Shown here: positions 5,817 through 64,000 of the stretch, in pieces | How the letters are laid out: each line of letters opens with the position of its first letter | Position numbering within the stretch: the stretch's first letter is position 1 | NCBI GenBank assembly: GCA_965213675.1 | Contig: OZ243916.1 | Coordinates: forward strand, 2,592,001 to 2,656,000 | Length of the DNA stretch: 64,000 nucleotides | Direction: 5' to 3' | From: an uncultured Candidatus Binatia bacterium | Lineage (GTDB): Bacteria; Desulfobacterota; Binatia; UBA9968; JAJDTQ01 | Program-made: the position numbers and the translations under genes | The notes under the pieces: generated by a model | The model's database searches: none | Seen by the model: the letters and a program-made list of their open reading frames with translations, nothing else | What the model was told of the DNA's origin: nothing

Positions 5817-6155
5817 GGTCCCCGGGATCTTGCGCCCAGCGACGGGCTCGCCGCCATCATGGGCATGTAGCCGGCGACCCATGATCGGAGCGCAACCACG
5901 GGGGAACGCTCATGGCCTTCATGCGAACACAGGTGCGGCGATTTCAAATCTTCGTTTCCCGGTAGGACCGGCCCCCGCAACCGTCCCTCCATGGGGGTTC
6001 GTCCGGCTCCGTTCCAGCCATTGGCGCCATTTCCTCAACCGGCATCAGGCACATCTTGTCGAAGGCCTTCTCGGTCCGCACCGCCAACCCGTTTCCTTGA
6101 TCGGCACCGGCAATCCTGTTAGACGCCAGACTTGGGTCCTACGCTCTGACGGGCC

Positions 6156-12877: not shown

Positions 12878-13028
12878 GAGTACTTCGGAACGTTGAAAGA
12901 GGACGTCGTTGTCTCATTGGAAAACTCTGGGGACACCACATCCTGTTCTTGAAAAGGGTCCCCGCGCCCATCATACTTTCGTTCACAGGGAGAGCTACCC
13001 ATCAGATTCCCCGAACCAAGGAGGTGCC

Positions 13029-14876
13029 ATGCCATCGAGTCGGTTGTTGGGAGCGGTCTTGTGCGCGCTTGCGCTGGCTGCCGCGCCGGGTGTGACGCGA
13101 GCTGTCGATGAGGCGCGCCCAAGCCACGGCATCGCCATGCACGGCGACCTGAAGTATCCGCCGGACTTCAAGCACTTCGACTACGTAAATCCAGGCGCGC
13201 CCAAGGGGGGAGCGGTGCGTCTCCAGGCCATCGGCACCTACGACAGCTTCAACCCCTTCATCGTCAAGGGCAGCCCGGCCGCGGGCATCGGGCGCATCTA
13301 CGAGACCCTGATGACATCGTCCGCGGACGAGCCCTTCAGCGAGTACGGGCTGCTGGCGGAAAGCATCACCGTGCCCCGGGACCGCTCCTGGGTGGAATTC
13401 CGATTGCGGCCGGAGGCGCGCTGGCACGACGGCAAGCCCGTGACCGCGGACGATGTCGTCTGGACCTTCGAGACCCTGGTCACCAAGGCGGTACCCTTCT
13501 ACCGCGGGTACTACGGCGACGTGAAGCAGGTGGAGAAGCGCGACGCGCGCACGGTGCGCTTTACGTTCAAGAGCGGCACCAACCGCGAACTGCCGCTCAT
13601 CCTTGGGCAACTGGTGGTGCTGCCGAAGCACGACTGGGCCGAGCGGGACTTCACCAAGACGACTCTGGAGCCGCCCCTGGGCAGTGGCCCCTACATGGTG
13701 GGCAGGTTCGAGCCCGGCCGCCACGTGGAGTACCAGCGGGTCGAAGACCACTGGGGCGGGAAACTGCCGGTCAACGTGGGCCGGGACAACTTCGACCGCA
13801 TCCGCTACGACTACTACCGCGACGGCACCGTGTCGGTGGAGGCGTTCAAGGCTGGGGAGTACGACTTCCGCAGCGAGAACAGCTCCAAGAACTGGGCCAC
13901 GGCCTATGACTTTCCGGCGTTGAAGCAGGGGCTGGTGAAGAAGGAGGAGATCCCCCACGACCGCTCCACCGGCATGCAGGCGTTCGTGTTCAACACCCGC
14001 CGGCCGCTCTTCCAGGATCGCAAGGTGCGCCAGGCGCTGGCCTACGCTTTCGACTTCGAGTGGTCCAACGAAGCCCTCTTCTACGGGCAGTACACACGCT
14101 CCCGCAGCTACTACGACAACTCGGAGCTGGCGGCCACGGGGCTGCCGGGTCCCGAGGAGTTGGCGGTCCTCGAACCGTACCGCGGGCGCATCCCGGACGA
14201 GGTGTTCACCCAGGCCTACGCGCCGCCGGCCACCGACGGCTCCGGGCGCATCCGCGCCAATCTCGGTCAGGCCGCAAGGCTCTTGCGCGAGGCCGGCTGG
14301 AGCGTCGACAAGGGCACGCGCAGGCTCGTCCACGAGTCCACCGGTCGGACCCTGGAGTTCGAAGTCCTGCTGGTGAGCCCGTTGTTCGAACGCATCGTGT
14401 TGCCGTTCGCGAAGAACCTGGAAAGGCTCGGCATCGTTGCCACGGTGCGCACGGTGGACAGCGCGCAGTACCGGAGGCGCCTTGACGACTTCGACTTCGA
14501 CGTGGTGGTGAGCACCTGGGGGCAGTCGCTCTCGCCCGGCAACGAGCAACGGGACTTCTGGGGATCGGCGTTCGCCGACCGCCCCGGCAGCCGCAACCTG
14601 ATCGGCATCAAGGACCCGGCGGTGGACGCGCTGGTGGAGGGCGTCGTCAACGCCACCGACCGCAAGGGCCTCGTGGCGCATGTGCGCGCTCTGGACCGGG
14701 TGCTCCAATGGGGCCACTGGGTCATACCCCAGTGGCATATCCCCTACGACCGCCTGGTGTACTGGGACCGCTTCGGCCGCCCCGAGGTCACCCCCACGCA
14801 GGGCGTTCAGTTCGACGCCTGGTGGATCGACCCCCGCAAGGCCGCGGAGCTGGAAGCCACGCGCTCGGGGGGCTGA
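13029..14876 (+). CDS. yejA: ABC transporter substrate-binding protein, family 5 (YejA-like)
   Basis: RBS aaggagg then ATG 13029; signal peptide; HGIAMHGDLKYPPDFKHFDYVNPGAPKGG and SLSPGNEQRDFWGS. Confidence 0.88.
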   Translation: MPSSRLLGAVLCALALAAAPGVTRAVDEARPSHGIAMHGDLKYPPDFKHFDYVNPGAPKGGAVRLQAIGTYDSFNPFIVKGSPAAGIGRIYETLMTSSADEPFSEYGLLAESITVPRDRSWVEFRLRPEARWHDGKPVTADDVVWTFETLVTKAVPFYRGYYGDVKQVEKRDARTVRFTFKSGTNRELPLILGQLVVLPKHDWAERDFTKTTLEPPLGSGPYMVGRFEPGRHVEYQRVEDHWGGKLPVNVGRDNFDRIRYDYYRDGTVSVEAFKAGEYDFRSENSSKNWATAYDFPALKQGLVKKEEIPHDRSTGMQAFVFNTRRPLFQDRKVRQALAYAFDFEWSNEALFYGQYTRSRSYYDNSELAATGLPGPEELAVLEPYRGRIPDEVFTQAYAPPATDGSGRIRANLGQAARLLREAGWSVDKGTRRLVHESTGRTLEFEVLLVSPLFERIVLPFAKNLERLGIVATVRTVDSAQYRRRLDDFDFDVVVSTWGQSLSPGNEQRDFWGSAFADRPGSRNLIGIKDPAVDALVEGVVNATDRKGLVAHVRALDRVLQWGHWVIPQWHIPYDRLVYWDRFGRPEVTPTQGVQFDAWWIDPRKAAELEATRSGG

Positions 14877-14930
14877 CCCCCGCCGGCTGGTACCGAAGCG
14901 CCGAAGTAGCACTCACCCACCGAAAACCGC

Positions 14931-16043
14931 ATGTTCGCCTACATCATCCGCCGGCTGCTGCTGATCGTTCCGACGCTGATCGGGATCATGGTGTTGAACT
15001 TCGTGATCATCCACTCGGCGCCCGGGGGGCCGGTGGAGCAGATCCTGGCAAAGCTCCAGCAGACGGACGTGTCGGCCACGGAACGGTTCAGCGGCGGCGG
15101 CGACCAACGTGAGGTGGGGCCGTCGGCGCAGCAGTCGCGGGACAGCGGCGGCACGGCCGGGCGGTACCGCGGCGCCCAGGGCATCGATCCCGAGTTCATC
15201 AAGGACATCGAGCGCCAGTTCGGCTTCGACAAGCCGGCCCACGTGCGCTTCTTTCTGATGATGTGGAACTTCCTGCGCTTCGACTTCGGCGACAGCTTCT
15301 TCCGCGACCGCTCGGTGGTGCAACTGGTGATGGACAAGCTTCCGGTGTCCATCTCCCTGGGGCTCTGGACCACGCTGCTGGTGTACCTCGTGTCCATTCC
15401 GCTGGGCGTGGCCAAGGCCGTGCGCGACGGCTCGCGCTTCGACGTGTGGACCTCCGGCGCGGTGATCGTGGGCAACGCGGTGCCGGGATTCCTGTTCGCC
15501 ATCCTGCTCATCGTGCTGTTCGCGGGCGGGCGCTACTTCGACTGGTTCCCGCTGCGCGGCCTGGTGTCGGACAACTGGAGCGAGCTGGGTTTCTGGCAGC
15601 GCATCCTCGACTACCTCTGGCACATCACCCTGCCGGTCCTGTCCATGGTCATCGGCGGCTTCGCCGGCCTCACCATGCTCACCAAGAACTCGTTCCTGGA
15701 TCAGATCAACCAGCAGTACGTGATGACGGCCCGGGCCAAGGGGCTGAGCGAGCGGCGCGTGCTCTACCGGCACGTGTTCCGCAATGCCATGCTCATCGTC
15801 ATCGCCGGCTTTCCCGGGGCTTTCGTCGGCGTTCTCTTCACCGGCGCGCTTCTCACCGAGGTGATCTTCTCGCTGGACGGCGTCGGCCTTCTGGGATTCG
15901 AGGCGGCCATCAACCGCGACTATCCGGTCATGTTCGGCACCCTCTACTTCTTCACCCTGTTGGGTCTGGTGATGAAGCTGGCGGAGGACCTCACCTACGT
16001 GGTGGTGGACCCGCGCATCGACTTCGAGAGCCGGGAGACGTGA
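14931..16043 (+). CDS. yejB: ABC transporter permease (YejB-like)
   Basis: [37 protein letters not shown]-like TARAKGLSE. Confidence 0.9.
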
Positions 16044-18856
16044 CACCGCTCAACCGAAGACGCCTGCGGAATTTTCGCGCCAACCGGCGCGGCTATGGGT
16101 CGCTCCTGGTGTTCTCCGCGCTACTGCTGGTGAGCCTGTTCGCCGAGTTCATCGCCAACGACCGGCCGCTGCTGGTGCGCTACGAGGGGCAGTTCTACAC
16201 CCCGGTGCTGGTGGACTACCCCGAGACGGAGTTCGGCGGCTTTCTGGAAACCAGCACGGAGTACAACGACCCTGAGGTGCAGGCGCTCATCCGGGAGCGC
16301 GGCTGGATCCTCTGGCCCCTCATCCCCTACAGCTACGACACCATCGTGTACGGCCTGCCGACGCCCGCCCCCTCGCCGCCCACCGCGCGCAACTGGCTCG
16401 GCACCGACGACCAGGCGCGGGACGTCACCGCCCGGCTCATCTACGGCTTTCGCATTTCGGTGCTGTTCGGCCTGGTGCTGACGCTGGTGAGCTCCGTCGT
16501 GGGCATTGCCGCGGGCGCGGTGCAGGGTTACTTCGGTGGGTGGCTCGACCTGCTCTTCCAGCGTTTCATCGAAATGTGGTCCGGGCTGCCGACCCTTTAT
16601 CTGCTCATCATCCTGGCCAGCGTGGTGACCCCGAGCTTCTGGTGGCTGCTGAGCTTCATGCTGCTGTTCAGTTGGATGGCGCTGGTGGGCGTGGTGCGCG
16701 CGGAGTTCCTGCGCGCGCGCAACCTCGACTACGTGCGCGCAGCCCGCGCCCTGGGCGTGGGCAACCCGCGGATCATCGCGCGCCACGTGCTGCCCAATGC
16801 CATGGTGGCGGCGCTGACCTTCCTGCCCTTCATCACCAGCGGCGCGGTGGTGACGCTCACGGCCCTGGACTTCCTGGGCTTCGGGCTGCCGCCGGGATCC
16901 GCATCCCTGGGCGAACTGTTGAAGCAGGGCAAGGACAACCTGCAGGCGCCGTGGCTGGGGTTCGCCGCCTTCTTCGTCATCGCCATCATGCTGAGCCTGC
17001 TGGTGTTCATCGGCGAGGCGGTGCGCGACGCCTTCGACCCGCGCAAGACATTCGCGCCGGAGGCCGCGGGCGAGGCGGTTGGCGTGTCCGGCATTCCGGC
17101 GGAGGAGTCCGCGGGCGGCGGGACAGGCTCCCGCGAAACGGCGAAGCCGAGGTCCGGGGGCGGCGCCGCTGGCTTGCCCGGGGCCGGAGCACCGGAGACG
17201 GGCGCCGCCGCGCGCGGGGCCGGCCCGCCGTTGCTCGCCATCGACGACCTCGCGGTGCGCTTCGGCGCAGGCCGCGGCGCCGTGGAAGCGGTGGACGGGG
17301 TCTCCCTCACCATCCGCAAGGGCGAGACCGTGGCGCTGGTGGGCGAGAGCGGCTCGGGCAAGTCGGCCACGGCGCTGTCCGTCCTCCAGCTTCTTCCCTA
17401 CCCCGCCGCCAGCCACCCGCGCGGCAGCATCCGCTTCCAGGAAACCGAATTGCTGCGCGCCTCGCCCCGGGACCTCCAGGCCATACGCGGCGACCGCATC
17501 GCCATGATCTTCCAGGAGCCCATGACCTCCCTCAACCCGCTGCACACCATCGCGCGCCAGATCGACGAGACCCTGAAGCTGCACAAGGGGCTCGACGGCG
17601 GCGCCGCCGCGGCGCGCACCCTGGAGTTGCTGCGGCTGGTGGGCATCGCCGAGCCCGAGCGCCGCCTGGGGGCCTACCCCCACGAGTTGTCCGGTGGGCA
17701 GCGGCAGCGCGTGATGATCGCCATGGCCCTGGCCAACGAGCCCGACCTGCTCATCGCGGACGAGCCCACCACCGCCTTGGACGTGACCATCCAGGCGCAG
17801 TTGCTGGAACTGCTCGTGAGCCTGCAAGGGCAGCTGGGCATGGCGATCCTGTTCATCACCCACGACATGGGCATCGTGCGCCGGCTGGCGGACCGCCTGT
17901 GCATCATGCAGCGCGGGAAGATCGTGGAAGCGGGCGCCACCGCCGAGGTGATGGAGCGCCCCCGGCACCCCTACACGCGCCATCTCCTGGCGTCGACGCC
18001 CAAGGGCGTCCCGGCGCCTTTCGACCGCGGCGAGCCGTTGCTGGCGTGCGACGACCTCAAGGTCTGGTACCCCATCAAGGCGGGGATTCTCCGGCGCACC
18101 GTGGACCATGTGCGCGCCGTGGATGGCATCTCCGTGGAGCTTCACCCGGGCGAGACCGTGGGCGTGGTGGGCGAGAGCGGCTCGGGCAAGACCACGCTGG
18201 GGCTGGGGCTCCTGCGGCTCACCGGCAGCACCGGCTCGGTGCGTTTCGACGGCCGCGAGATCCAGGGGCTGCGCTCACGGGCGCTGCGGCCGTGGCGCCG
18301 CGACATGCAGGTTGTCTTCCAGGACCCCTACGGGTCGCTGAACCCGCGCCTGTCCGTGGCGCAGATCATCGAGGAAGGCCTGGTGGTTCACGGGCTCGGG
18401 CGCGGCGCCGAAGAACGGGACGCTCTCATCGTCGAGGTCCTGCGCGAGGTGGAACTGGAACCCGAGGCGCGCCACCGTTATCCCCACGAGTTCTCGGGCG
18501 GGCAGCGCCAGCGCATCGCCATCGCCCGGGCCATGGTGCTGAAGCCGCGGCTGGTGGTTCTGGACGAACCCACCTCGGCCCTCGACGTGTCCGTGCAGGC
18601 TCAGATCGTCGGATTGCTCCGGCGTCTCCAGGAGCAGCACCGTTGCGCGTACCTGTTCATCAGCCACGACCTCAAGGTAGTGCGCGCCATGAGCCACCAC
18701 GTCCTGGTGATGCACCACGGCGTCGTGGTGGAACAGGGTCCGGCCAACGCCATCTTCGAGACCCCTCGCCACGAGTACACGAAGGAACTCGTGGCCGCCG
18801 CCTTCGACCTCCAGGCGAGCGGGGACGCACACCTCGCGGGGGATGGACGCCGGTAG
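16040..18856 (+). CDS. Fused ABC permease (YejE-like) plus tandem ATPase (YejF-like)
   Basis: GTG 16040 overlaps the yejB stop. YejE motifs ([23 protein letters not shown]) run without a stop through an Ala/Gly linker into two ABC domains ([16 protein letters not shown]; [16 protein letters not shown]). Confidence 0.85.
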
Positions 18857-53774: not shown

Positions 53775-54398
53775 ATCCGTACCAACATCTATATCGACGG
53801 TTTTAATCTCTACTATCGTGCGCTTCGGGGTACGCCTTACCGTTGGCTCGATATTGGGAGGCTGGCGCGGACCCTGCTTTCCCGTCATCACATATGCCGG
53901 ATACGGTACTTCACCGCCTTGGTCGCCAACCGCGCTGGCGACTCCACCCAGGCGCAACGGCAACAGGCTTACATCCGCGCCTTGCAGACCATACCCGACT
54001 TGACCATCCATTACGGCCATTTCCTTGCGAAAACCAAGCGGAGACCGCTCGCTCGCCAACCAAATACCGGCCCACGCACCGTCGAGATACTGGACACCGA
54101 GGAGAAGGGTTCAGACGTCAATCTCGCCTCCTACCTGTTGCTGGACGGCTTTGAAGGAGAATACGAGATGGCCGTCGTGATCTCCAACGACTCCGACCTG
54201 GAACTTCCCGTCCGAATGGCACGGACCAAGCTCGGAAAGGAGGTAGGAGTCTTCGACCCGAGCCGCAGACGGAGCTTTCAGTTGCACGACGCGGCGTCTT
54301 GGTACAGACCGCTACGCGAGGGTCCACTGCGCGCCAGTCTTTTCCCTGATACCGTCCGGGACGCGCATGGCTCCATAACCAAACCAGCAGGCTGGTAG
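53775..54398 (+). CDS. NYN (LabA/DUF88, PIN-fold) ribonuclease; apparent ATC start
   Basis: In-frame IRTNIYIDGFNLYY upstream of the ORF-track start; EEKGSDVNLA and VISNDSDL acidic motifs; no ATG/GTG/TTG in frame between the stop at 53691 and 53919. Confidence 0.85.
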   Translation: MRTNIYIDGFNLYYRALRGTPYRWLDIGRLARTLLSRHHICRIRYFTALVANRAGDSTQAQRQQAYIRALQTIPDLTIHYGHFLAKTKRRPLARQPNTGPRTVEILDTEEKGSDVNLASYLLLDGFEGEYEMAVVISNDSDLELPVRMARTKLGKEVGVFDPSRRRSFQLHDAASWYRPLREGPLRASLFPDTVRDAHGSITKPAGW

Positions 54399-54507: not shown

Positions 54508-54791
54508 TCACAACGACAGCGGCGGGTCCCGGAAGACCTCTTTGCGGTGCCATTGAACGAAGTCGGGGTCGGGGTCCAAGGTTCGATTCTTCGGCGGGCG
54601 CAACCGCTTGCCATGGAAGTCATCGAACAATTCCGAGGGGTTGACGTCGCTGGAGACGAGTATCCTGAAGTCGTCGTCCACGGGATCGAGGCCGAGGGCG
54701 CCGCGGTCGAACAGCTTGTGGTCGGACCAGCACAAGGCCAACCCGTTGAACACTTCATCCGGGCCGCCCGCGGCATGCCACTTGATATGCG
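54508..54791 (-). pseudogene. C-terminal fragment of an HNH restriction endonuclease (resembles PT-DNA-directed SBD-HNH family), cut by IS3
   Basis: (A)HIKWHAAGGPDEVFNGLALC..DHKLFDRG...WHRKEVF; the frame runs directly into the IS left end. Confidence 0.75.
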
Positions 54792-54854
54792 TGGTCTTAC
54801 CCGGGTTTGGTGGACATCTGATAAGAGGCGAAGATGGCCTCGGAGGTGACGACC

Positions 54855-55142
54855 ATGACACGGAAGAGACGGAAGTTTTCGAAGGAGTTCAAGCAGGAAA
54901 CGGTCAAGCTGGTCAAGGAAGGACCGCGCTCGGTGGGAGAAGTCGCGCGTGATTTGGACTTGACGGAATCGGCGGTACGCAACTGGGTGCGGCAGTTCGA
55001 CGTGGACGCTGGTGTGCGCGAGGGGGTGAGCACGGGCGAGCTCGAGGAGGTACGCCAGCTGCGGTCGGAGAACCGGCAGCTACGGATGGAGCGCGACATC
55101 CTAAAAAAAGCGACGGCCTTCTTCGCCAAGGAATCGATGTGA
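54855..55142 (+). CDS. IS3 transposase OrfA
   Basis: RRKFSKEFK HTH, ERDILKKATAFF. Confidence 0.9.
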   Translation: MTRKRRKFSKEFKQETVKLVKEGPRSVGEVARDLDLTESAVRNWVRQFDVDAGVREGVSTGELEEVRQLRSENRQLRMERDILKKATAFFAKESM

Positions 55143-56002
55143 GGTTCGCGTTCATCGAGGCGGAGAAGGCCAGATTTCCCGTGACCATGATGTGCCGGCT
55201 GCTTGAGGTTTCTCGAAGCGGGTTCTACGCTTCGCGTGGGCGTCGTGAGAGCACGCGGGCAGGGGAGGACCGCCGCTTGCTGGTCCACATCAAGGCGAGC
55301 CACACGGCGTCGCGTGGGACCTACGGCAGCCCGCGGGTGCACCGGGACCTGGTCGAGGACGGCGTGGCAGTCGGACGGCACCGCGTAGCGCGTCTGATGC
55401 GCCAGGAGGGCCTTCGCTCCAAGCGCCGGCGCCGCTACCGGGTGACCACCCACTCGGACCATCACCACCCGGTGGCAGCCAACGTGCTGGAGCGCGACTT
55501 CACCGCCGATGCCGAGAACTGCAAGTGGGCAGCGGACATCACCTACGTGTGGACGCGCTGTGGCTGGTTGTACCTGGCGGTGGTGCTTGACCTGTACTCC
55601 CGCCGGGTGGTCGGATGGGCGATGTCCAATCGCCTCACACGGGAACTCGCGTTGAACGCCTTGGGCATGGCTCTGACCCACCGGCCTCGGCCCGAGCTGC
55701 TGCTGCACCACTCTGACCGCGGCAGTCAATACGCTTCGGCCGACTACTGGCGCCTGCTCGATGCCCACGGCATCCAATGCTCCATGAGCCGGCGCGCCAA
55801 CTGCTGGGACAACGCCGTCGTGGAGAGCTTCTTTGCTACCCTGAAGACCGAGCTTATCCACCACGTCGACTACCCCACTCCAGCCGAGGCAAGGGCCGCG
55901 ATCTTCGAGTTCATCGAGGTGTTCTACAATCGGCAACGTCGCCACTCCACCCTCGGCTACCAGACATCAGCTGGCTTCGAACGGATGGCACCGGCAGCTT
56001 AA
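55139..56002 (+). CDS. IS3 transposase OrfB (DDE)
   Basis: WAADITY, HSDRGSQY, DNAVVESFF. Confidence 0.92.
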   Translation: MRFAFIEAEKARFPVTMMCRLLEVSRSGFYASRGRRESTRAGEDRRLLVHIKASHTASRGTYGSPRVHRDLVEDGVAVGRHRVARLMRQEGLRSKRRRRYRVTTHSDHHHPVAANVLERDFTADAENCKWAADITYVWTRCGWLYLAVVLDLYSRRVVGWAMSNRLTRELALNALGMALTHRPRPELLLHHSDRGSQYASADYWRLLDAHGIQCSMSRRANCWDNAVVESFFATLKTELIHHVDYPTPAEARAAIFEFIEVFYNRQRRHSTLGYQTSAGFERMAPAA

Positions 56003-56036: not shown

Positions 56037-56601
56037 TGTACCTGGTGGCGGTGATGGACTGGGCCACCCGCCGGGTGCTCTCCTGGCGGCTGTCGAACAC
56101 CCTCGATGCCCGCTTCTGTGTCGAGGCCCTCTCAGAGGCTCTGGAACGCTACGGTCCTCCCGAGATCTTCAACACGGACCAAGGCAGCCAGTTCACCAGC
56201 CTGGAGTTCACCTCCGTGCTCAAGGACGCCGGCATTGCCATCTCCATGGACGGCAGGGGCCGGTGCATGGACAACATCTTCATCGAGCGCCTGTGGCGCT
56301 CCCTCAAGTACGAGGCCGTCTACCTGCACGAGTTGACCGACGGCTTCGCCGCCCAAAGGGCCATCGCCAACTGGCTCCACTTCTACAACACCCAAAGACC
56401 TCATTCCGCCCTCGCCGGCTCCACCCCGGCGGAGGCCTACGAACCAGGACTCCACAGGCCGGACCTCACACCCCGCCCGCCCCTCTGACAGTTCCATCGG
56501 AACACGAAGACGTGATAAACGGGACCTTGGCGGCATGATCGATCGTCTGGAATACACCTTAACTCCGCCGCCTTCCTGTCCTACAAACCAGGACCACCTC
56601 A
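56037..56601 (+). mobile_element. 3' remnant of IS3-family element B (partial orfB plus right IR)
   Basis: Near-identical to the reverse complement of 57074-57642; ends ...ggaccacctca; a small indel shifts the orfB tail (stop 56488). Confidence 0.9.
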
Positions 56602-56925: not shown

Positions 56926-57136
56926 TGAGAACCTCCTATTCGTCACTTCTCCCCCAAGATAACGGGGTGCCTCCGGCCTTGACCAGGGAGTTGTAAGTGC
57001 GCCACAAGGTGGGTTGACCTTCGTCCCTAGGGTGTGGAAACGCCAAGTCATGTGCATCTAGCACTTCTTCTTGTGAGGTGATCCTGGTTTGTAGGACAGG
57101 AAGGCGGCGGAGATAAGGTGTATTCCAGACGATCGA

Positions 57137-58060
57137 TCATGCCGCCAAGGTCCCGTTTATCAGGTCTTCGTGTTCCGAAGGAACTGTCAGAGGGGCGGGC
57201 GGGGTGTGAGGTCCGGCCTGCCTCTGGAGTCCTCGTTCGTAGGCCTCCGCCGGGGTGGAGCCGGCGAGGGCGGAATGAGGTCTTTGGGTGTTGTAGAAGT
57301 GGAGCCAGTTGGCGATGGTCCTTTGGGCGGCGAAGCCGTCGGTCAGCTCGTGCAGGTAGACGGCCTCGTACTTGAGGGAGCGCCACAGGCGCTCGATGAA
57401 GATGTTGTCCATGCACCGGCCCCTGCCGTCCATGGAGATGGCAATGCCGGCGTCCTTGAGCACGGAGGTGAACTCCAGGCTGGTGAACTGGCTGCCTTGG
57501 TCCGTGTTGAAGATCTCGGGAGGACCGTAGCGTTCCAGAGCCTCTGAGAGGGCCTCGACACAGAAGCGGGCATCGAGGGTGTTCGACAGCCTCCAGGAGA
57601 GCACCCGGCGGGTGGCCCAGTCCATGACCGCCACCAGGTACAGGAAGCCACTCTGGACAGGGATATAGGTGATGTCGGAGGTCCACACGTGATTGGGCCG
57701 TTCGATGGCGACGCCCTTGAGCCGATAGGGATAGACCCGGTGCTCGGGGTGCGGTCGGGTGGTGCGCGGCGCCTGGTAGATGGCCTGGAGCCCCATCAGG
57801 CGCATCAGACGCCGCACCCGGTGACGACCCACTCGGACTCGCTCCCGCCACAGATGGCGGACCATCTGGCGGCTGCCGTAGAAGGGGTACTCCAGGAACA
57901 GCTCATCGATCCGGCGCATCAACGCCAGATTCTCCGCGCTCTCGCCCTTGGGCCTGTGGTACACAGAGGATCGGCTCACTCGAAGCAGATGGCATTGACG
58001 GCTCAAGCTGAGCTTGGGATGGCCGGGCTCGATCATCCCCCGGCGCTTCTCCCGGCTCAC
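57137..58060 (-). CDS. IS3 transposase OrfB
   Basis: PFYGSRQM, WTSDITY, NTDQGSQF, DNIFIERLWRSLKYE. Confidence 0.92.
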   Translation of the reverse strand: MSREKRRGMIEPGHPKLSLSRQCHLLRVSRSSVYHRPKGESAENLALMRRIDELFLEYPFYGSRQMVRHLWRERVRVGRHRVRRLMRLMGLQAIYQAPRTTRPHPEHRVYPYRLKGVAIERPNHVWTSDITYIPVQSGFLYLVAVMDWATRRVLSWRLSNTLDARFCVEALSEALERYGPPEIFNTDQGSQFTSLEFTSVLKDAGIAISMDGRGRCMDNIFIERLWRSLKYEAVYLHELTDGFAAQRTIANWLHFYNTQRPHSALAGSTPAEAYERGLQRQAGPHTPPAPLTVPSEHEDLINGTLAA

Positions 58061-58338
58061 CACTTGAGCCCCTTGGCCAAAAAATCCCGCTCCACCGTCA
58101 GCTCCCCGATCTTCGCGTGCAGGTCCCGGACCTCCCCCTCGTGGTCTCCTCGTGCCCGCTCGGCTCCCTTCGAGAACACCTCCTTCATCCCCTCCACCGC
58201 ACGCTGCTTCCACGTGCTCACTTGGTTCGGATGGACCTTGTGCCGCGACGCGAGCTCCTGGATCGTCTTGTCTCCGCGCAGCGCCTCCAGCGCTACCTTC
58301 GCCTTGAACTCTCCGCTGAACCGTCGTCGTGTCCTCAT
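58057..58338 (-). CDS. IS3 transposase OrfA
   Basis: RRRFSGEFKAKVALEA, KIGELTVERDFL. Confidence 0.9.
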   Translation of the reverse strand: MRTRRRFSGEFKAKVALEALRGDKTIQELASRHKVHPNQVSTWKQRAVEGMKEVFSKGAERARGDHEGEVRDLHAKIGELTVERDFLAKGLKW

Positions 58339-58371
58339 TGCGTATCCCTCCCTGAGTCGGTGGAATACACC

Positions 58372-58509
58372 TTAGCTACCTGTCCGTTTTTCCGGGACCA
58401 CCTCATTGATCGGCTTGGGGGCCGATCGCTTATGAGCCTTGACGGTTACCGGTTTCGGTCCCGGCTTTTTGCCTGTCCTCGTTGGGCGGCAAACCACCTT
58501 CTTGGCCAT
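58372..58509 (-). CDS. Small Lys/Pro-rich basic peptide whose last codons were displaced by IS element B
   Basis: RBS aaggaggt; MAKKVVCRPTRTGKKPGPKPVTVKAHKRSAPKPI|NEVVPEKRTGS*. Removing the IS restores ...PKPIKKKC* (stop at 57058-57060). Confidence 0.6.
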   Translation of the reverse strand: MAKKVVCRPTRTGKKPGPKPVTVKAHKRSAPKPINEVVPEKRTGS

Positions 58510-58737
58510 ACGCACCACCTCCTTCCTATAGGGAATTGAGGCGAGGGTTACCTAACGCTTCCCGACGACGCCCGGTAGAGGTCGCGGCGGGTTTCTCAAC
58601 CTCCGCCATTTCAAGCTGAGGCAGGACCGACCTCCCCAAACACCGGCTCATTCACCTCATCCTCTGTAAATCATCCACCCGATTCCTCGCATGATGGTCT
58701 TCTCATTGGCGATATCGCCAGGTATACTTTGGCTACT

Positions 58738-58802: not shown

Positions 58803-59153
58803 ATGGCCTCTCCTTCTGAAATCTTTCGGCAGCGTTTGAGGGCGGCCAGGGGTACACGCGACTGGAGTCAAAGCGATTTGGCCCAGCGCGCTGGCTTGCC
58901 GCCTAGTTCGATAGCGCACTTTGAAACCGGATCACGCAAGCCATCTTTCGACACCTTGCGGCGACTCGCTAGTGCATTGGAAGTTACGACCGATTACCTT
59001 TTGGGAAGAGTCGAGGAACCTGGTCTTGCCGAAGCCGGAGACCCGTTATTCCGAGATATCGGTAATCTCACCGGCAGCGACCGCGAACTAGCCAGGGACT
59101 TCCTCAAGATGTTGGCGGACCGCAACGCAGCCAAACACAAGGAAGGCAAATGA
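58803..59153 (+). CDS. XRE-family HTH transcriptional regulator
   Basis: WSQSDLAQRAGL..SSIAHFETGSRKPS..TL..LA.AL.VTTDYLLG. Confidence 0.92.
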   Translation: MASPSEIFRQRLRAARGTRDWSQSDLAQRAGLPPSSIAHFETGSRKPSFDTLRRLASALEVTTDYLLGRVEEPGLAEAGDPLFRDIGNLTGSDRELARDFLKMLADRNAAKHKEGK

Positions 59154-60013
59154 GTGTGGCGTTTGGTCTGGAGATGGCCGAAAGGGAAGGGGAAGCCATA
59201 GTCGGTAGGCTAGGCATTCATTCCCTGCCCATAGATCCTATCGAGATTGCGAAACACCACGGCATCGCGGTTGAACCAAAACCCGACGCCGCTGAGGGTG
59301 TGTCCGGAATGCTCCTTCGTCACGGCGACACCTTTGGGATTCTCTATGCCACTCACATCGCAAGCAAGGGTTTCCAGAGGTTCAGCATAGCCCATGAGCT
59401 TGGGCATTATTTCCTTGATGGACACATAGATCATGTCCTCAAAGACGGCCCTCACAGCTCAAATGCAGGTTTCTCTTCCCCCAACCCTTACGAACGGGAA
59501 GCCGACAGTTTTGCGGCTGGCCTGCTGATGCCGGGTCACCTATTCCGCAAAGAGCTGAACCAAGAAGCCCCAGGGCTAGCTACAATTGAGGCATTGGCCG
59601 ATCTCTGTCAGACATCCCTAACAGCGACTGCAATTCGGTACGCCAAATTGACCGAAGACGCGGTCGCCGTGGTCGTGAGTACCGGCAAAGCCATCAATTT
59701 TTGTCGGCTCTCGGATGCCATGACGTCGTTGGCTGAGATCACATGGCCAAAAAAGGGCGATCTTGTTCCGTATGGCACCGCTACTGCGGACATCAATGCC
59801 GATCCTGCCCGGGTCGCCCTGTTGGACCGCGCAGAAGCGGAAATCGACATCCTGGACTGGTTGGGCGGTCAACGGTCCGTGCAAGGGACAGAACAGGTCA
59901 TGGGACTCGGCAGCTACGGCAGGACCCTTACTGTTCTTTCTGTAGATGACATGTGTGAAGAGGACGAAGAAGAAAGCCTAACCGAGAGTTGGACTCCACG
60001 TTTGCGTCGATAA
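59150..60013 (+). CDS. ImmA/IrrE-family Zn metallopeptidase
   Basis: RFSIAHELGHY (HExxH), EREADSFAAGLLMP, SLTATAIR; ATGA coupling to the XRE gene. Confidence 0.92.
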   Translation: MSVAFGLEMAEREGEAIVGRLGIHSLPIDPIEIAKHHGIAVEPKPDAAEGVSGMLLRHGDTFGILYATHIASKGFQRFSIAHELGHYFLDGHIDHVLKDGPHSSNAGFSSPNPYEREADSFAAGLLMPGHLFRKELNQEAPGLATIEALADLCQTSLTATAIRYAKLTEDAVAVVVSTGKAINFCRLSDAMTSLAEITWPKKGDLVPYGTATADINADPARVALLDRAEAEIDILDWLGGQRSVQGTEQVMGLGSYGRTLTVLSVDDMCEEDEEESLTESWTPRLRR

Positions 60014-60076
60014 GCTCGCGCGGGCTTGGGCGTGACGCGGTCATCACTGCTTTGAATAGCGCACGGAGTCTATCCA

Positions 60077-60946
60077 ATGGCTAAAGAGGAAAGCGTAACC
60101 GTCTACCGGGCTCTCAGCTTGGGGGCTGGAGCCCAGAGTTCAGTTCTAGCGCTCTTGCTTTCTCGGTCCGATGCTCGCTTGGCCAAGCTTGGTTATCGGA
60201 AACCCGACGTCGCCATCTTTGCCGACACTGGATGGGAGCCTGAGTACGTTTACCGCCATCTGGACTGGCTAGAAAAACAACTGACCTATCCATTAGTCCG
60301 GGTATCCGAGGGCAATCTAAGGACGAACCTGAAGCGAGGTCGAACTGTATCGGGTCATCGTTTCGTTGATGTACCCCTATTCACGATCGATCCGGGTGGC
60401 AAGAAGGGGATGCTGCGGCGGCAGTGCACGAACCACTACAAGATACGGCCCATCTATCGACGAATTCGGAGGCTTGCTGGTGGACAACCTGGCCGACCGT
60501 TTCCCAGAGATACCCATGCCGAAATGTGGCTTGGTATTTCCCTGGACGAGGTGGGCCGCATGAAGCCGAGTAGGGAGTCGTGGGTCGAACATCGCTGGCC
60601 TCTTGTCGACATCGGCATGACGCGTGAGGATTGCATCGACTGGTTCAACTCTGAGTATCCAGAACGCCATCTGCCTCGGTCAGCCTGCGTCATCTGCCCC
60701 TACCGCTCAGACGACCACTGGTCGGAACTCAAGGAGCGTGAACCGGCGAGCTACAAGGAAGCCATCGAGTTCGACCGCTGGCTTCGGAGAAGCACCGACA
60801 CCCCTATACGGAAGCTGTTGAATGGCCGACCGTACCTGCACGCGGCTCGCCGTCCCCTCGCCAGTGTCATGGAAGACCGGGAGACGGGCCGCGCGACCAG
60901 CATCGACAACTTCAACAACGAGTGCGAGGGCCTCTGTGGTGTCTGA
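60077..60946 (+). CDS. Cys-rich PP-loop (adenine nucleotide alpha hydrolase / PAPS-reductase-like) protein
   Basis: LSLGAGAQS, FADTGWE, RRQCT..YKIRP, RSACVICPY, terminal ECEGLCGV. Confidence 0.8.
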   Translation: MAKEESVTVYRALSLGAGAQSSVLALLLSRSDARLAKLGYRKPDVAIFADTGWEPEYVYRHLDWLEKQLTYPLVRVSEGNLRTNLKRGRTVSGHRFVDVPLFTIDPGGKKGMLRRQCTNHYKIRPIYRRIRRLAGGQPGRPFPRDTHAEMWLGISLDEVGRMKPSRESWVEHRWPLVDIGMTREDCIDWFNSEYPERHLPRSACVICPYRSDDHWSELKEREPASYKEAIEFDRWLRRSTDTPIRKLLNGRPYLHAARRPLASVMEDRETGRATSIDNFNNECEGLCGV

Positions 60947-62186
60947 GACAGGAACCGTGACAATCAGGCCAGAATATCCCTTGTACCCATACCAAAGACA
61001 AGTTCTGGCCGACATTCTCCGTGCACTATCATCTCCTGAACCTCGTGTGGTCGCTCATCTTCCTACCGGCGCCGGCAAGACTCGGATCGCAGCACACGCC
61101 GCTTGTCACCTCCTCAACGAAAGGGACACCGAAGACTCTCTCGTCATCTGGCTGGCAGCCACAGAGGAACTTTGCGAACAGGCGGCCGACCAACTGTCAG
61201 ACGCGTGGACGCATCTGGGCCGGCGCGAGGTCTCCATTCATCCCTATTGGGGAAGCCAGTCAACTGACTTGCGACGTCTCCCCTCCGGTTTCTTGGTGAC
61301 CGGCCTTGCCAAGCTACGCTCCATTGCCTTCCAAGACAACACCCTTCTCGCGCACCTAGCCCAGTGTGCCGCGGCCGTCATCTTTGACGAAGCTCACCAG
61401 GCGATCGCCAACACCTACTCCTACATTACAGACCAGCTTTGCAGTGTAAGGCCACCCCTTCTCGGCCTCACAGCCACTCCCGGGCGGACCGCGAATATCA
61501 CGGATGCCGACTTTCGGCTTGCAGAGATGTTCAAGCACAACAAGGTTTCTATAGATCCAAGGGGGCACGACAACCCAGTTACCTATCTGATTCAAAACCA
61601 CTACTTGGCCGATCCACGCTTCGTGCCAATCGGCTTCGATTCGGACACGACGATCACTGAGCCCCTGCCCGGGGCCGACTACAGCACAGAGGATCTCAAG
61701 GACATGGGCCGGAGCCGCCAACGCACACGCAAGATCGTAGAACTAGCCGAGGATGCAGCGGCACGCCATCCCCGCACTATAGTGTTTTGCCCGTCTGTCG
61801 AAAGTGCTCTGGAATGCACCGACCTCCTTCACGCAAAGGGTGTCATTGCTGATGTTGTCACCGCTGAGACCCCCATAGAAGTTCGTCAAACCGCCATCTC
61901 AGCCTTCCGAAGTGACCGCAGGGAACACATGGTGATATTGAACTACGGTGTACTGACCGCCGGGTTCGACGCTCCGCGCACCCGATGCGTCATCATCGCG
62001 CGGCCAACAACGTCGCTAGTGCTTTACTCACAGATGGCCGGGCGGGCGATGCGCGGCCCTAAAGCCGGTGGAAATTCAAAGGCCGAGATACTCACGGTGG
62101 CAGACACGAACCTACCGGGGTTCGGGTCCGTGACTGATGCCTTCACAAATTGGGAGCACCTATGGTCAACCAACTCGCCGAATTAG
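60939..62186 (+). CDS. Superfamily 2 DEAD/DEAH helicase (ResIII-like)
   Basis: LPTGAGKT, DEAH, GLTATP, LTAGFDAP, QMAGRAMRG; the likely GTG start overlaps the upstream stop. Confidence 0.9.
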   Translation: MSETGTVTIRPEYPLYPYQRQVLADILRALSSPEPRVVAHLPTGAGKTRIAAHAACHLLNERDTEDSLVIWLAATEELCEQAADQLSDAWTHLGRREVSIHPYWGSQSTDLRRLPSGFLVTGLAKLRSIAFQDNTLLAHLAQCAAAVIFDEAHQAIANTYSYITDQLCSVRPPLLGLTATPGRTANITDADFRLAEMFKHNKVSIDPRGHDNPVTYLIQNHYLADPRFVPIGFDSDTTITEPLPGADYSTEDLKDMGRSRQRTRKIVELAEDAAARHPRTIVFCPSVESALECTDLLHAKGVIADVVTAETPIEVRQTAISAFRSDRREHMVILNYGVLTAGFDAPRTRCVIIARPTTSLVLYSQMAGRAMRGPKAGGNSKAEILTVADTNLPGFGSVTDAFTNWEHLWSTNSPN

Positions 62187-64000
62187 AACACGCAGACCGC
62201 AACCTTTTTCCGAGCAATTTCACGATAAGGGCGCTGCGGGATAGCCGGTACCACAACACCGCCTACGCCATTGCTGAACTGATTGACAACTCCGTTGAAG
62301 CACACGCCGAGCAAATAGACCTCCTCTGCATGGAGCGGGTGCAAAACACCGCCCTCCAAAAGCGTCGACGAGTATCCGAGGTGGCCGTCATCGATAACGG
62401 GGTGGGAATGGATGTCAAAACGCTCTTCGAGGCCCTGAAATTTGGAGGAGGAACCCGTCACCACGCAGACCGAGGGATCGGAAAATATGGAATGGGCTTG
62501 CCCACGTCGTCAATGTCTCAGTGCAAAAGAGTAGACGTCTGGACATGGCAGGAGGACATAGATTCGGCGTGGCATTCCAGTATTGACGCCGACGAGATCG
62601 AGCAAGGGGACCACAGAGCTCCGCTCCCCGACCGAGACACACCCATACCGAAGGTGTGGTTAGAGGCGGCCAGCGACCGCATACTCAACCATCGCTCCGG
62701 TACAATTGTCGTATGGACAAAGCTCGATAAGATCCAATGGCGCACCGGCGGCACCATCCTTCGGCACACCGCGCGAGAGGTCGGTCGTATCCACCGCTAT
62801 TGGATTGATGCCGACATGACCAAGATACGCATCGGGTATTTTCTCAACAACCGACCGACAAATATCGAAAACGAAGGCCATATTGTGGCCAACGATCCTC
62901 TCTACTTAATGACTCCTTCCTCGACACCCGCACCATGGGACAACAAGCCAATGTTCAAGCAATGGGCGACACCTACCGAATATACGGCCACTGTGGACGA
63001 CAAAGAGGTGCCGATCCAGGTACGATACTCCATCGTCACACCCGAAGCACTACAGACCACCGTCGTTGCGCAGCTTCCCGGCGCGACAGACCACGGCAAA
63101 CACGCTAGACATAACATCGGGGTATCTGTTGTTCGAGAGGATAGGGAGATTGTACTCGAAACGGCCTTCCTCCGAGAGGGCGGGAGTGCAGAAAATCCAC
63201 AAAACCGGTGGTGGGGCTGTCAAGTCCAATTCGGTCGTGTTTGCGACGAGTTGTTTGGAGTAGACCACAACAAACAAATGGTCGCTAACTTTACCCACGC
63301 TGCAAAGACTCTCCTCCAAGACGACCGTCCGAATCAAGTCATACTTGACGAGTTGGGCGTCGACGATGACATCATCTACACCATAGTTGCAGACATCCGC
63401 GACCAGACCCGCGCAATGATGGCCACCATTAGACAAATGTTTGCACAACGACGACCTCAACCACATGGACCTACGACGAATAATCCCGAAAAGAAGGCGG
63501 CAAAGACCGCCACTGAGGCTGACCGAGACGCGATGGAATCTGGCAAGGAGAACCCCACCAAGACGGACCGGGATCGGGACGACATTCCGCCAGAGGATCG
63601 CGAGGCTGAACTTACCAAACAGTTCATGAACGCCGGGCAAACGGCTCAGGACGCCAAGACGCTCGCCAAACTGCTTGTGCAGGAGGGCCTTTCTTACCAA
63701 TTCAACTCGATGCAGCTCGACGGTTTCCAAATATTCAATGTTCGGTCGAACCAAGGGGTTCTACACATCAATCTGAACACCGATCATCCCATTTATGACC
63801 TCCTCAAACACATTGAAGACGACCTTCCTGAGGATGTCGACGAGAACAATCCCGCGTTCCAGGCCAGCGTGGCGATCAGATTGTTATTGTCATCGTGGGC
63901 TCGAATGGAGGATCAAACCGAATCACGCGAACAGCGCGCACACATACAGGACACCGCCATGAACTGGGGACGTCAGGTTGATAAAGCTATCAGCCAGTTG
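62162..64000 (+). CDS. MORC-like GHKL ATPase (runs off the window; absent from ORF track)
   Basis: Manual translation from ATG 62162: ALRDSRYHNTAYAIAELIDNS, IDNGVGM, GIGKYGMGLP, SGTIVVW, later GVSVVREDRE, RWWG, DELFGV..NKQ; no stop seen to base 64000. Confidence 0.9.
   Translation, partial: MVNQLAELEHADRNLFPSNFTIRALRDSRYHNTAYAIAELIDNSVEAHAEQIDLLCMERVQNTALQKRRRVSEVAVIDNGVGMDVKTLFEALKFGGGTRHHADRGIGKYGMGLPTSSMSQCKRVDVWTWQEDIDSAWHSSIDADEIEQGDHRAPLPDRDTPIPKVWLEAASDRILNHRSGTIVVWTKLDKIQWRTGGTILRHTAREVGRIHRYWIDADMTKIRIGYFLNNRPTNIENEGHIVANDPLYLMTPSSTPAPWDNKPMFKQWATPTEYTATVDDKEVPIQVRYSIVTPEALQTTVVAQLPGATDHGKHARHNIGVSVVREDREIVLETAFLREGGSAENPQNRWWGCQVQFGRVCDELFGVDHNKQMVANFTHAAKTLLQDDRPNQVILDELGVDDDIIYTIVADIRDQTRAMMATIRQMFAQRRPQPHGPTTNNPEKKAAKTATEADRDAMESGKENPTKTDRDRDDIPPEDREAELTKQFMNAGQTAQDAKTLAKLLVQEGLSYQFNSMQLDGFQIFNVRSNQGVLHINLNTDHPIYDLLKHIEDDLPEDVDENNPAFQASVAIRLLLSSWARMEDQTESREQRAHIQDTAMNWGRQVDKAISQL

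Follow-up and report, generated by a model that had tools for sequence, protein, structure and literature searches.

What system is encoded by the guanine-plus-cytosine (GC)-poor island at the right end of a 64,000-nucleotide (nt) stretch of a Candidatus Binatia genome (G000:C1:2592001-2656000; hereafter the window, within which all feature coordinates are counted)? An original prediction, made from the letters of the window, had described five co-oriented genes in low-GC DNA next to a cluster of insertion sequences (IS) and had proposed an undescribed defense or DNA modification operon. Translation of the open reading frames (ORFs) recovered all five genes (g1 to g5) on the plus strand from 58803 to the window end, at or near the positions proposed, and the rightward extension of the contig (L001) added a sixth plus-strand gene (g6), as had been suspected for the DNA beyond the window. 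The GC fraction is 0.53 to 0.60 from about 58500 to 65000, versus 0.657 for the contig, and IS copies do lie on the left. The last four genes are a conserved cassette, which is transferred between phyla as a whole. We predict, with moderate confidence, that this cassette is a compact, mobile restriction system based on sulfur modification, which in this genome would have come under a DNA damage switch. The six genes are listed below with the models that they match.

58803..59153, plus strand: g1, CapH-like XRE-family helix-turn-helix repressor, 116 amino acids (aa); HTH_3, PADLOC capH
59150..60013, plus strand: g2, CapP-like M78 (IrrE-type) zinc metallopeptidase, 287 aa; Peptidase_M78, PADLOC capP
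60077..60946, plus strand: g3, PP-loop/phosphoadenosine phosphosulfate (PAPS) reductase-like protein, 289 aa, putative DNA sulfur modification enzyme; phrog_424, SspD model
60936..62186, plus strand: g4, SF2 helicase, about 416 aa, proposed translocase of a restriction module; ResIII, DEAD, Helicase_C
62150..64015 (64000 is the window limit), plus strand: g5, MORC-like GHKL ATPase, 621 aa; HATPase_c_3
64021-64902 in window-equivalent coordinates (L001 6021-6902), plus strand: g6, single-HKD nuclease of the phospholipase D (PLD) family, 293 aa, proposed effector

Conservation and spread of the four-gene cassette

The six genes are closely packed. g1 and g2 overlap by 4 nt, a 63-nt gap with GGAG ahead of the ATG separates g2 from g3, the start of g4 overlaps the stop of g3 by 8 to 11 nt, and g4 overlaps g5 by 25 to 37 nt; the stop of g5 (64015) lies in L001, 15 nt past the window end, and g6 begins after a further 5 nt. 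The longest ORF of g4 opens at 60822. Its homologues align only from residue 39-40, and the start is therefore likely the GTG at 60936 or 60939.

Scanning one genome per species with g3 gave 33 related loci. The original prediction had staked itself on the PP-loop gene keeping company with the helicase/MORC pair elsewhere, and homologues of g4 and g5 lie directly downstream of g3 in 30 of the 33 loci. All four genes, g3-g4-g5-g6, are present with the same order and spacing in 28. As for the incomplete loci, L008 is cut by a contig end, L013 is disrupted (at 10074-10505 the g5 match ends at residue 144, with no PLD gene after it), and three Nitrosopumilaceae loci have the PP-loop gene only. The bacterial loci come from metagenome-assembled genomes labeled Binatia, Latescibacterota, Alphaproteobacteria, Acidobacteria, Chloroflexota/Dehalococcoidia/SAR202, Caldilineaceae and Gemmatimonadota (Gemmatimonadetes), and their g3 proteins are 66 to 83% identical to the window copy.

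The borders of the conserved unit are sharp. In an all-against-all clustering of ORFs of at least 80 aa, no flanking family was common to more than four loci, and every larger cluster corresponded to one of the four cassette genes or to an other-frame ORF overlapping them. DNA similarity to the window starts a few bases inside g3 and stops within g6; in L002 only, it runs further left, into capH and its promoter. The four proteins also diverge together: their pairwise identity matrices, computed for 29 loci (L008, L013 and the three archaeal loci left out), correlate with Spearman coefficients of 0.68 to 0.88 (Mantel P ≤ 0.001, 999 permutations). Because of the same gene order, the codivergence, the lack of common flanks and the DNA homology that ends at g3 and g6, we conclude that the conserved entity is a four-gene cassette moving between phyla as a unit. 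The cassette is foreign to its host genomes: of 24 bacterial loci of at least 16 kb (six shorter and the three archaeal loci left out), 23 have a cassette poorer in GC than its flanks, with a mean difference of 8.4 points. Of 400 other genomes sampled from the phylum of the window, one (G038) has a g5 homologue, and this sporadic presence, together with the low GC content, argues for horizontal transfer. A near-identical gene order at 62 to 96% identity of the PP-loop protein across many phyla is a clear marker of recent gene flow between phyla.

A second, partial g3-like stretch was seen in L006 (about 6046-6146), approximately 2 kb upstream of the cassette.

The helicase-ATPase-nuclease trio and its Ssp neighbors

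The sequence of g4 matches ResIII (E value of 3e-19), DEAD (4.4e-15) and Helicase_C (2.4e-13), and its GAGKT, DEAH, TATPGR and QMAGRAMRG motifs are intact. In g5, which matches HATPase_c_3 (1.2e-21), we could read three of the four GHKL motifs (the Bergerat motifs ELIDNSVEA, DNGVGM and GKYGMG); GVSVVREDREI fits, by eye, 10 of the 11 positions of the S5 motif GhXhhpXXRhl (Iyer et al. 2008), and the four best sequence matches in the Protein Data Bank (PDB) are human MORC2 chains, over residues 34-144 only (5e-05 to 1.5e-04). The g6 protein has one copy of the HKD motif (HAKYYRADD...GSANLT). Its matches to Pfam PLDc_2 (3.3e-05) and PLDc (0.0024) are both under the cutoff and a PDB sequence search gave no match; the best Foldseek matches of its structure model (predicted local distance difference test [pLDDT] score of 84.6) are SauUSI (5.2e-04), the NgoAVII R-protein, NucT and BfiI (probability 1.00).

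Taken together, g4 and g6 recall the SauUSI/NgoAVII/CglI enzymes, since g6 shares the PLD nuclease fold with SauUSI, the NgoAVII R-protein and BfiI, and g4 matches the helicase region of SauUSI (7clg; 6.6e-10). SauUSI is a type IV enzyme that targets modified cytosine; it is not known to have a modification partner or a GHKL subunit, which distinguishes it from the cassette. Nucleases with a single HKD motif, such as Nuc and BfiI, need to dimerize to form one active site, and a g5 ATPase that dimerizes on ATP could, by analogy, supply control of g6 dimerization. The helicase/MORC pair had originally been cast as motor or effector. A motor role is retained here, while the likely effector is the predicted PLD nuclease g6.

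No PADLOC 2.0 model recognizes the trio. The best matches are weak and partial, namely, PbeA to the helicase part of g4 (5.3e-17), the N terminus of MzaB to g5 (3e-15) and DrmC to g6 (3.2e-08), and the earlier failure to recognize a named system is thereby borne out. PbeABCD, Mza, DISARM, Tiamat and BREX type 4 were each considered as identities and rejected, as their models gave weak partial matches or none. The closest published theme is that of Iyer, Abhiman and Aravind (2008), who described sporadic, laterally transferred operons in which MORC-type GHKL ATPases occur with an SFII helicase and a nuclease and who noted HKD domains. With g4 and g6 flanking g5, in an order kept in 28 of 33 loci, the cassette fits within the broad MORC-helicase-nuclease restriction-modification class that these authors predicted. 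It differs in having a PP-loop protein in place of their DNA methylase partners, and a separate nuclease gene in place of an HKD domain fused N-terminally to Rad25-like helicases; the terms "PP-loop," "PAPS," "Dnd" and "phosphorothioat" have zero occurrences each in that text. The DndCDEA-PbeABCD system is linked to phosphorothioate and likewise combines a PLD nuclease function, an SF2 helicase function and a second ATPase. PbeA, however, is one PLD-helicase fusion, PbeC is a CxC-type ABC ATPase and PbeD is DndE-like (PMC6459918, PMC10853773, as far as available), whereas in the cassette separate genes encode the nuclease and the helicase, the ATPase belongs to the GHKL type, and we found no DndE-like gene and no PbeC match.

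The helicase also invites a different reading, in which the island is a DNA damage-inducible repair or recombination module (RadD-like helicase, MutL-like ATPase and nuclease) rather than a defense system. RadD is the best named match of g4 (NCBIfam, 5.6e-30, under its cutoff; PDB, 6.5e-22), GHKL ATPases include MutL, and CapH/CapP resemble DdrO/IrrE, the controllers of Deinococcus repair genes (Lau et al., preprint). We consider this reading improbable: g4 is shorter than full-length RadD, the regulators are absent from 32 of the 33 related loci, the cassette is sporadic, foreign in GC content and IS flanked, plasmids carry its distant relatives next to Ssp genes and toxin-antitoxin pairs, and Iyer et al. 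(2008) predicted that the combination of MORC, SFII helicase and nuclease serves restriction-modification.

A tblastn search of plasmids with g5 returned 51 records, 12 of which cover at least 80% of g5; the full-length homologues are 33 to 37% identical to it, and 8 of the 12 loci were examined. In all eight, a helicase gene lies upstream of the g5 homologue and a PLD-family gene or a hypothetical gene of similar size lies downstream. Local BLAST of three loci gave identities of 42 to 44% for the helicase, 34 to 37% for the ATPase and 30 to 31% for the nuclease; in the Aminobacter locus, the helicase is 26% and the ATPase 35% identical, and the nuclease had no BLAST match. A gene annotated as "phosphoadenosine phosphosulfate reductase family protein" is found within 6 to 9 kb in six of the eight. 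On plasmid A of Trichormus variabilis ATCC 29413, the order is DUF4007, a 1168-aa protein, PAPS reductase, two small ORFs, a DndB-like gene, helicase, ATPase, PLD and cysteine desulfurase, and PADLOC identifies the first three as SspB (5.3e-125), SspC (E value of 0) and SspD (6.6e-119). On Mesorhizobium onobrychidis pOM4, the trio converges on genes annotated as a PAPS reductase, an ATPase of 1008 aa, DUF4007 and a desulfurase. Plasmids of Roseobacter litoralis, Hymenobacter, Geminocystis and Aminobacter show variations on the theme of trio plus PAPS reductase, with DndB/DGQHR-type genes, and in G038 an SspB-SspC-SspD module is convergent with PLD-MORC-helicase. Thus, seven of nine distant trio loci are linked to PAPS reductase family genes, three of them with complete SspB/C/D modules, and a DndB/SspE-like gene often stands between SspD and the trio.

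This linkage gives real comparative backing to the prediction that the cassette acts through DNA sulfur modification. The earlier proposal of a DNA-modifying role thus gains from the distant trios beside PAPS reductase genes, although g3 itself is not SspD and the role remains a prediction. Like SspABCD with SspE or SspFGH, the cassette would couple a PAPS reductase-fold enzyme to a separate restriction module, and full-length homologues of its trio lie inside or beside verified SspB/C/D loci. It differs from them in that SspA, SspB and SspC are absent from the cassette (SspB as searched for within the island), g3 is not an SspD orthologue, and the trio is neither SspE nor SspFGH. SspFGH was rejected as the identity of the trio: in the available portions of PMC8092258, a Walker A motif is described for SspF and an FtsK-like end for SspH, and no helicase or PLD terms appear there. 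On an Agrobacterium plasmid (L054, pAtCFBP7129b, 10384-17964), a helicase-MORC-hypothetical trio is followed by two hypothetical genes and a large FtsK/SpoIIIE-domain gene, an arrangement reminiscent of the SspFGH description.

The PP-loop protein g3 and its predicted mark

If the trio is a restriction arm, what would g3 contribute? Its match to the phage and plasmid family phrog_424 is strong (2.5e-41 over residues 12-289), while its match to Pfam PAPS_reduct (E value of 0.01, 16.3 bits) falls under the 22.5-bit cutoff. It is only 23% identical to Trichormus SspD (BLASTP, 7e-07; 2e-12 with A1, a profile built on an alignment of 20 homologues). By these matches, g3 is a member of phrog_424 and is neither SspD nor DndC, and the earlier view that the PP-loop enzyme is not DndC stands. 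Five of the six cysteines of g3 (C117, C204, C207, C283 and C287) are invariant across the 20 homologues, the last two within a C-terminal ECEGxCGV tail, and a variant PP-loop, SLGAGxQS, is invariant as well; we take it to be closer to the PAPS reductase variant, judging from the CysH motif. When g3 is aligned with a verified SspD by hhalign (probability of 96.5), the two proteins correspond at the PP-loop, at the QCT cysteine and at the CxxC motif. Neither g3 nor profile A1 retrieved a meaningful sequence match from the PDB (best E values of 0.65 and 0.87, respectively). In a VIA search, the best structural match of the AlphaFold model is PAPS reductase 7rge (Z score of 10.8, root mean square deviation [rmsd] of 3.9, 160 aligned), tied with TilS, LarE, NcsA, APS reductase and others, and no chain titled Tdp, Dnd or Ssp is among the matches listed by Foldseek and VIA. 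As modeled, g3 has the PAPS reductase/PP-loop fold, Rossmann-like alpha/beta/alpha with an N-terminal PP-loop. Sulfur transfer assisted by an iron-sulfur (Fe-S) cluster is a feature of TtuA, NcsA and DndC, and the cysteine pattern of g3 appears compatible with this chemistry by analogy; for the Fe-S cluster of DndC, a source is cited in the reference list of PMC6790972.

The fold alone would also suit a metabolic PAPS/APS reductase, that is, a cysH-type auxiliary gene that merely neighbors an unrelated helicase/ATPase/nuclease system. PHROG files phrog_424 as an auxiliary metabolic gene, phage "PAPS reductase," the best structural matches of g3 are PAPS reductases, and its C-terminal EC.G tail is reminiscent of the ECGLH motif of CysH. 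Such a bystander role is nonetheless very improbable, in that g3 codiverges with the trio and is translationally coupled to g4, and a genuine CysH is encoded elsewhere in the genome (C1:2804405; PF01507, 5.5e-56), far above the subthreshold score of g3. The genome holds three more PAPS_reduct genes, at C21:37942-39213 (minus strand; 423 aa, domain at residues 170-354), C1:3004024-3004713 (minus strand) and C18:19015-19704 (plus strand).

Relatives of g3 occur on mobile elements. Three phage or plasmid proteins are 40 to 43% identical to g3: gp12 of Pelagibacter phage HTVC034P, the product of a gene on an Agrobacterium pAt plasmid and the C-terminal half of a Mesorhizobium phage-like plasmid protein whose N terminus is a C5 DNA methylase fragment. 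The nearest ESM Atlas clusters are mostly viral, a profile of the 20 homologues found 5176 cluster representatives at an E value of ≤0.001 (1653 at ≤1e-30), and tblastn found g3-type matches, none reaching 60% identity, in 171 records of plasmids and 44 of phages. On phages and plasmids, g3-type genes are solitary, without the trio. In three of the four alphaproteobacterial conjugative plasmids examined, the g3-type gene begins at the stop codon of a gene for a zincin of approximately 309 aa, which in the one case scanned is ArdC (ArdcN, 5.7e-42; MPTase-PolyVal, 3.9e-44); in the fourth, it comes after a large ParB-family gene. Solitary copies beside antirestriction and methylase genes fit the pattern expected of orphan protective DNA modifiers. 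In a domain scan of 10 longer relatives, 6 have an N-terminal DUF6339 above the Pfam cutoff and 2 more have it below; P0233 instead has an N-terminal ArsR/MarR-type winged helix. DUF6339 had no mention in the literature searched and adds no functional information. The DUF6339-carrying homologues are listed on the next line.

P0122, P0124, P0127, P0129, P0264 and P0258: DUF6339-carrying g3 homologues, about 420-575 aa

This distribution bears on an alternative in which g3 acts on a component protein of the system, by modifying or priming it, or serves as a nucleotide sensor, like the QueC-like PP-loop defense proteins, and the trio is a modification-independent or abortive effector. One structural match of g3 is Cap9 (9nto_B, Z score of 9.0, rmsd of 4.0, 152 aligned), a CBASS PP-loop protein that acts by modifying CdnD, its partner; g3 and g4 overlap translationally, and the cassette has no obvious sequence recognition subunit. 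However, the Cap9 score is tied with those of many unrelated PP-loop enzymes, the commonness of solitary g3-type genes on phages and plasmids suggests that the substrate is something found in all cells, such as DNA, and the fusions to a winged helix and to a C5 methylase fragment likewise point to DNA. We regard this alternative as unlikely, while giving it real weight.

The archaeal (Nitrosopumilaceae) g3 homologues are 47 to 49% identical to g3, and in two of the three loci, the two that are long enough, the next gene belongs to the DndB family (PF14072, 1.2e-36; PADLOC DndB, 8.1e-22). In these loci (L031, 4452-7204, and L033), the PP-loop/DndB pair lies directly downstream of the PADLOC candidate PDC-M33A/B (3e-88 and 1.6e-31), in what appears to be a small defense island.

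PP-loop enzymes also thiolate and aminate bases on tRNA, and the restriction-modification-like logic could be kept with g3 writing a mark other than a backbone phosphorothioate, e.g., a thiolated or aminated base. Among the structures that tie with PAPS reductase as matches of g3 are two tRNA thiolases, TtuA and NcsA, as well as the lysidine synthetase TilS and LarE (Z scores of 9.4 to 10.2). The sequence of g3 is far from those of SspD and DndC, and the cassette lacks the partner ATPase and the DNA-targeting component found in Ssp and BREX type 4. Yet the recurrent partner of the trio elsewhere is the SspBCD phosphorothioation module, the archaeal g3 homologues are paired with a DndB-family gene, and no case of DNA base modification by a g3-family PP-loop enzyme was found in the literature searched. 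We assign another mark only a small chance.

For the reading that we prefer, a sulfur modification-based restriction system, the following mechanism is proposed. g3 would mark the DNA of its own host with sulfur, most likely as a backbone phosphorothioate, using an Fe-S cluster held by C117, C204 and C207 together with the cysteine tail of C283 and C287, and sulfur from a housekeeping cysteine desulfurase. g4, g5 and g6 would assemble into an ATP-driven machine for scanning DNA, by which DNA without the mark would be cut or nicked. The gene order, modifier first and translationally coupled to the motor, fits restriction-modification logic. Our preference rests on several observations: the trio recurs beside SspBCD genes elsewhere; g3 matches SspD at its PP-loop, QCT cysteine and CxxC motif and has, as modeled, a PAPS reductase/PP-loop fold; archaeal homologues of g3 precede a DndB-family gene; solitary g3-type genes resemble orphan protective modifiers; g4, g5 and g6 have kept their catalytic motifs, and g4 and g6 together resemble SauUSI; and a single-gene phosphorothioate writer has a precedent in tdpC, which alone suffices for phosphorothioate synthesis according to the available text of PMC12914056. 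In addition, neither the SspC model nor the DndB Pfam model matches anything in the whole genome (97.7% complete), and g3 is therefore the only candidate modifier beside the trio.

Several observations weigh on the other side. g3 is remote from any proven phosphorothioate enzyme: its match to the PADLOC SspD model (4e-12, 44 bits) is dwarfed by that of the true Trichormus SspD, the same model matches 6 of 14 control genomes at an E value of ≤0.001, so that weak matches are not diagnostic, and the DndC and BrxP models gave no match at an E value of ≤0.01 (PADLOC; for DndC, also NCBIfam). The classic SGGxDS motif is not found, Gln replacing Asp in 20 of 20 aligned homologues, and ATP-dependent adenylation by g3 is not assured because its PP-loop is without the classic Asp. 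The structure model of g3 is mediocre (pLDDT of 69.9, with a good core and a C-terminal third below 60). The proven Ssp and BREX type 4 systems depend on a large partner ATPase and on a component that targets DNA (PMC12914056), whereas the cassette has neither of these and no desulfurase, and the trio might depend on a DndB/SspE-like gene that the cassette does not have. Among the plasmid loci, that of Cyanobacterium HL-69 lists a desulfurase only and that of Agrobacterium CFBP7129b lists neither a PAPS reductase nor a desulfurase, in PLSDB gene tables that are incomplete. Finally, all capH/capP pairs described in the available part of Lau et al. (preprint) lie upstream of and divergent from the regulated operon, whereas g1 and g2 are on the plus strand like g3 to g6.

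On the features tested, the cassette is not a member of the Ssp, Dnd, Pbe, BREX type 4 or Mza systems. With respect to Dnd, g3 had no DndC match and the genome no DndB (DndD and DndE were not searched genome-wide). The original prediction had advised looking rightward for a desulfurase, DndB-E, a methylase or a nuclease; a nuclease of the PLD family is there, and a desulfurase, a DndB-E protein or a methylase is not. TdpA is reportedly a hexameric motor and TdpB a nuclease. Compared by description only, TdpABC (An et al. 2025) resembles the cassette in its minimal layout of one modification gene with a TdpAB restriction module. The combination of a PP-loop/PAPS reductase protein with a MORC ATPase, a helicase and a PLD nuclease is not described in PADLOC 2.0 or in the open literature searched, including the available text of PMC12914056, PMC10853773, PMC12839542, PMC8092258 and PMC6459918; supplements, subscription journals and newer releases lie outside this scope and may hold a prior description. 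The modification-based restriction class is known, and what would be new is the restriction arm with a single-protein putative writer.

A broader proposal, which we advance tentatively and hold to be rather doubtful, is that phrog_424 is a family of single-subunit DNA phosphorothioate writers. With the trio, it would form a fifth, minimal phosphorothioate immune system moving between phyla, next to the four established ones, dnd, ssp, tdp and BREX type 4 (PMC12914056, available text). The solitary copies on phages and ArdC plasmids would be antirestriction genes that forge the same mark, and MORC ATPases would be readers or enforcers of a backbone mark in prokaryotes. In plants and animals, the MORC family enforces epigenetic silencing. 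If the proposal is correct, it describes a very compact phosphorothioate system with a restriction arm built on a MORC ATPase, assigns a function to the trio, which has no annotation in the Ssp loci on plasmids of Cyanobacteria, Alphaproteobacteria and Bacteroidota, and turns a large viral family, routinely called metabolic and cysH-like (the 5176 cluster representatives above), into DNA modification and counterdefense genes.

Regulators and flanking DNA

The regulators had originally been counted as part of the system, a view that the related loci do not support. g1 matches HTH_3 (1.3e-15) and PADLOC capH (3e-28, over 2-101 of 103 profile positions), and g2 matches Peptidase_M78 (1e-14) and capP (2.9e-66, over 4-241 of 242), with an intact HExxH motif read from the translation (HELGH at H82-H86). 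A capH homologue is present in 1 of the 33 related loci (L002, upstream of the cassette; 85% identical, capH model 6.2e-27) and a capP homologue in none, and CapH/CapP is therefore a local add-on of the window lineage, outside the conserved system. In L002 (7788-8001), the closest relative, 212 nt separate the capH homologue from the PP-loop gene downstream; capP has been lost from that locus or, alternatively, entered the lineage of the window by insertion.

By analogy with the CapH/CapP-regulated CBASS and DISARM operons, whose capH and capP models are matched over their full length, g1 and g2 are probably a damage-inducible switch and probably cotranscribed with the cassette. As published, a peptidase activated by single-stranded DNA cuts the repressor (Lau et al., preprint, in part); cargo such as g3 to g6 is not among the cargos in the available part of that preprint. 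In this genome only, CapH would probably repress a promoter upstream of the operon, and CapP would cleave CapH once single-stranded DNA from DNA damage appears, raising the expression of all six genes. A consensus scan found the promoter-like site given first in the list below, although two sites were found versus 2.7 expected and the site is weak by itself. Between its hexamers lies a 14-nt palindrome, TGGCGATATCGCCA (58707-58720), which we infer to be a candidate CapH operator; the hexamers and the TTGGC/GCCA half-sites are kept upstream of the capH homologue in L002. Features flanking the genes are as follows.

58700..58728, plus strand: promoter-like site TTCTCA-17 nt-TATACT, candidate CapH operator; consensus scan
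57050..58400, minus strand: IS3-like copy with two ORFs, left flank; copies found elsewhere in the assembly
64909-65520 in window-equivalent coordinates, minus strand: rve integrase fragment, right flank; rve 4.1e-23, single copy

A composite transposon was considered and rejected, as the multicopy IS on the left is unrelated to the rve fragment on the right and the latter is single copy. Three near-full copies of the 57050-58400 element occur elsewhere (two on C1 and one on C18), and a 569-bp fragment at 56037-56601 is inverted relative to part of it (97.7% identity). Further left, 54834-56002 holds an IS3-type orfA/orfB pair, of which the assembly has one further near-full copy and several fragments. 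Two short ORFs lie to the left of the IS cluster (54508-54861, minus strand, and 53919-54398, plus strand), one of which (117 aa) is HNH-like by eye; they may be remnants of another defense or mobile gene. To the right of the integrase fragment, L001 7752-8309 (minus strand; window-equivalent 65752-66309) encodes a 185-aa retropepsin-like aspartyl protease (gag-asp_proteas, 1.3e-08).

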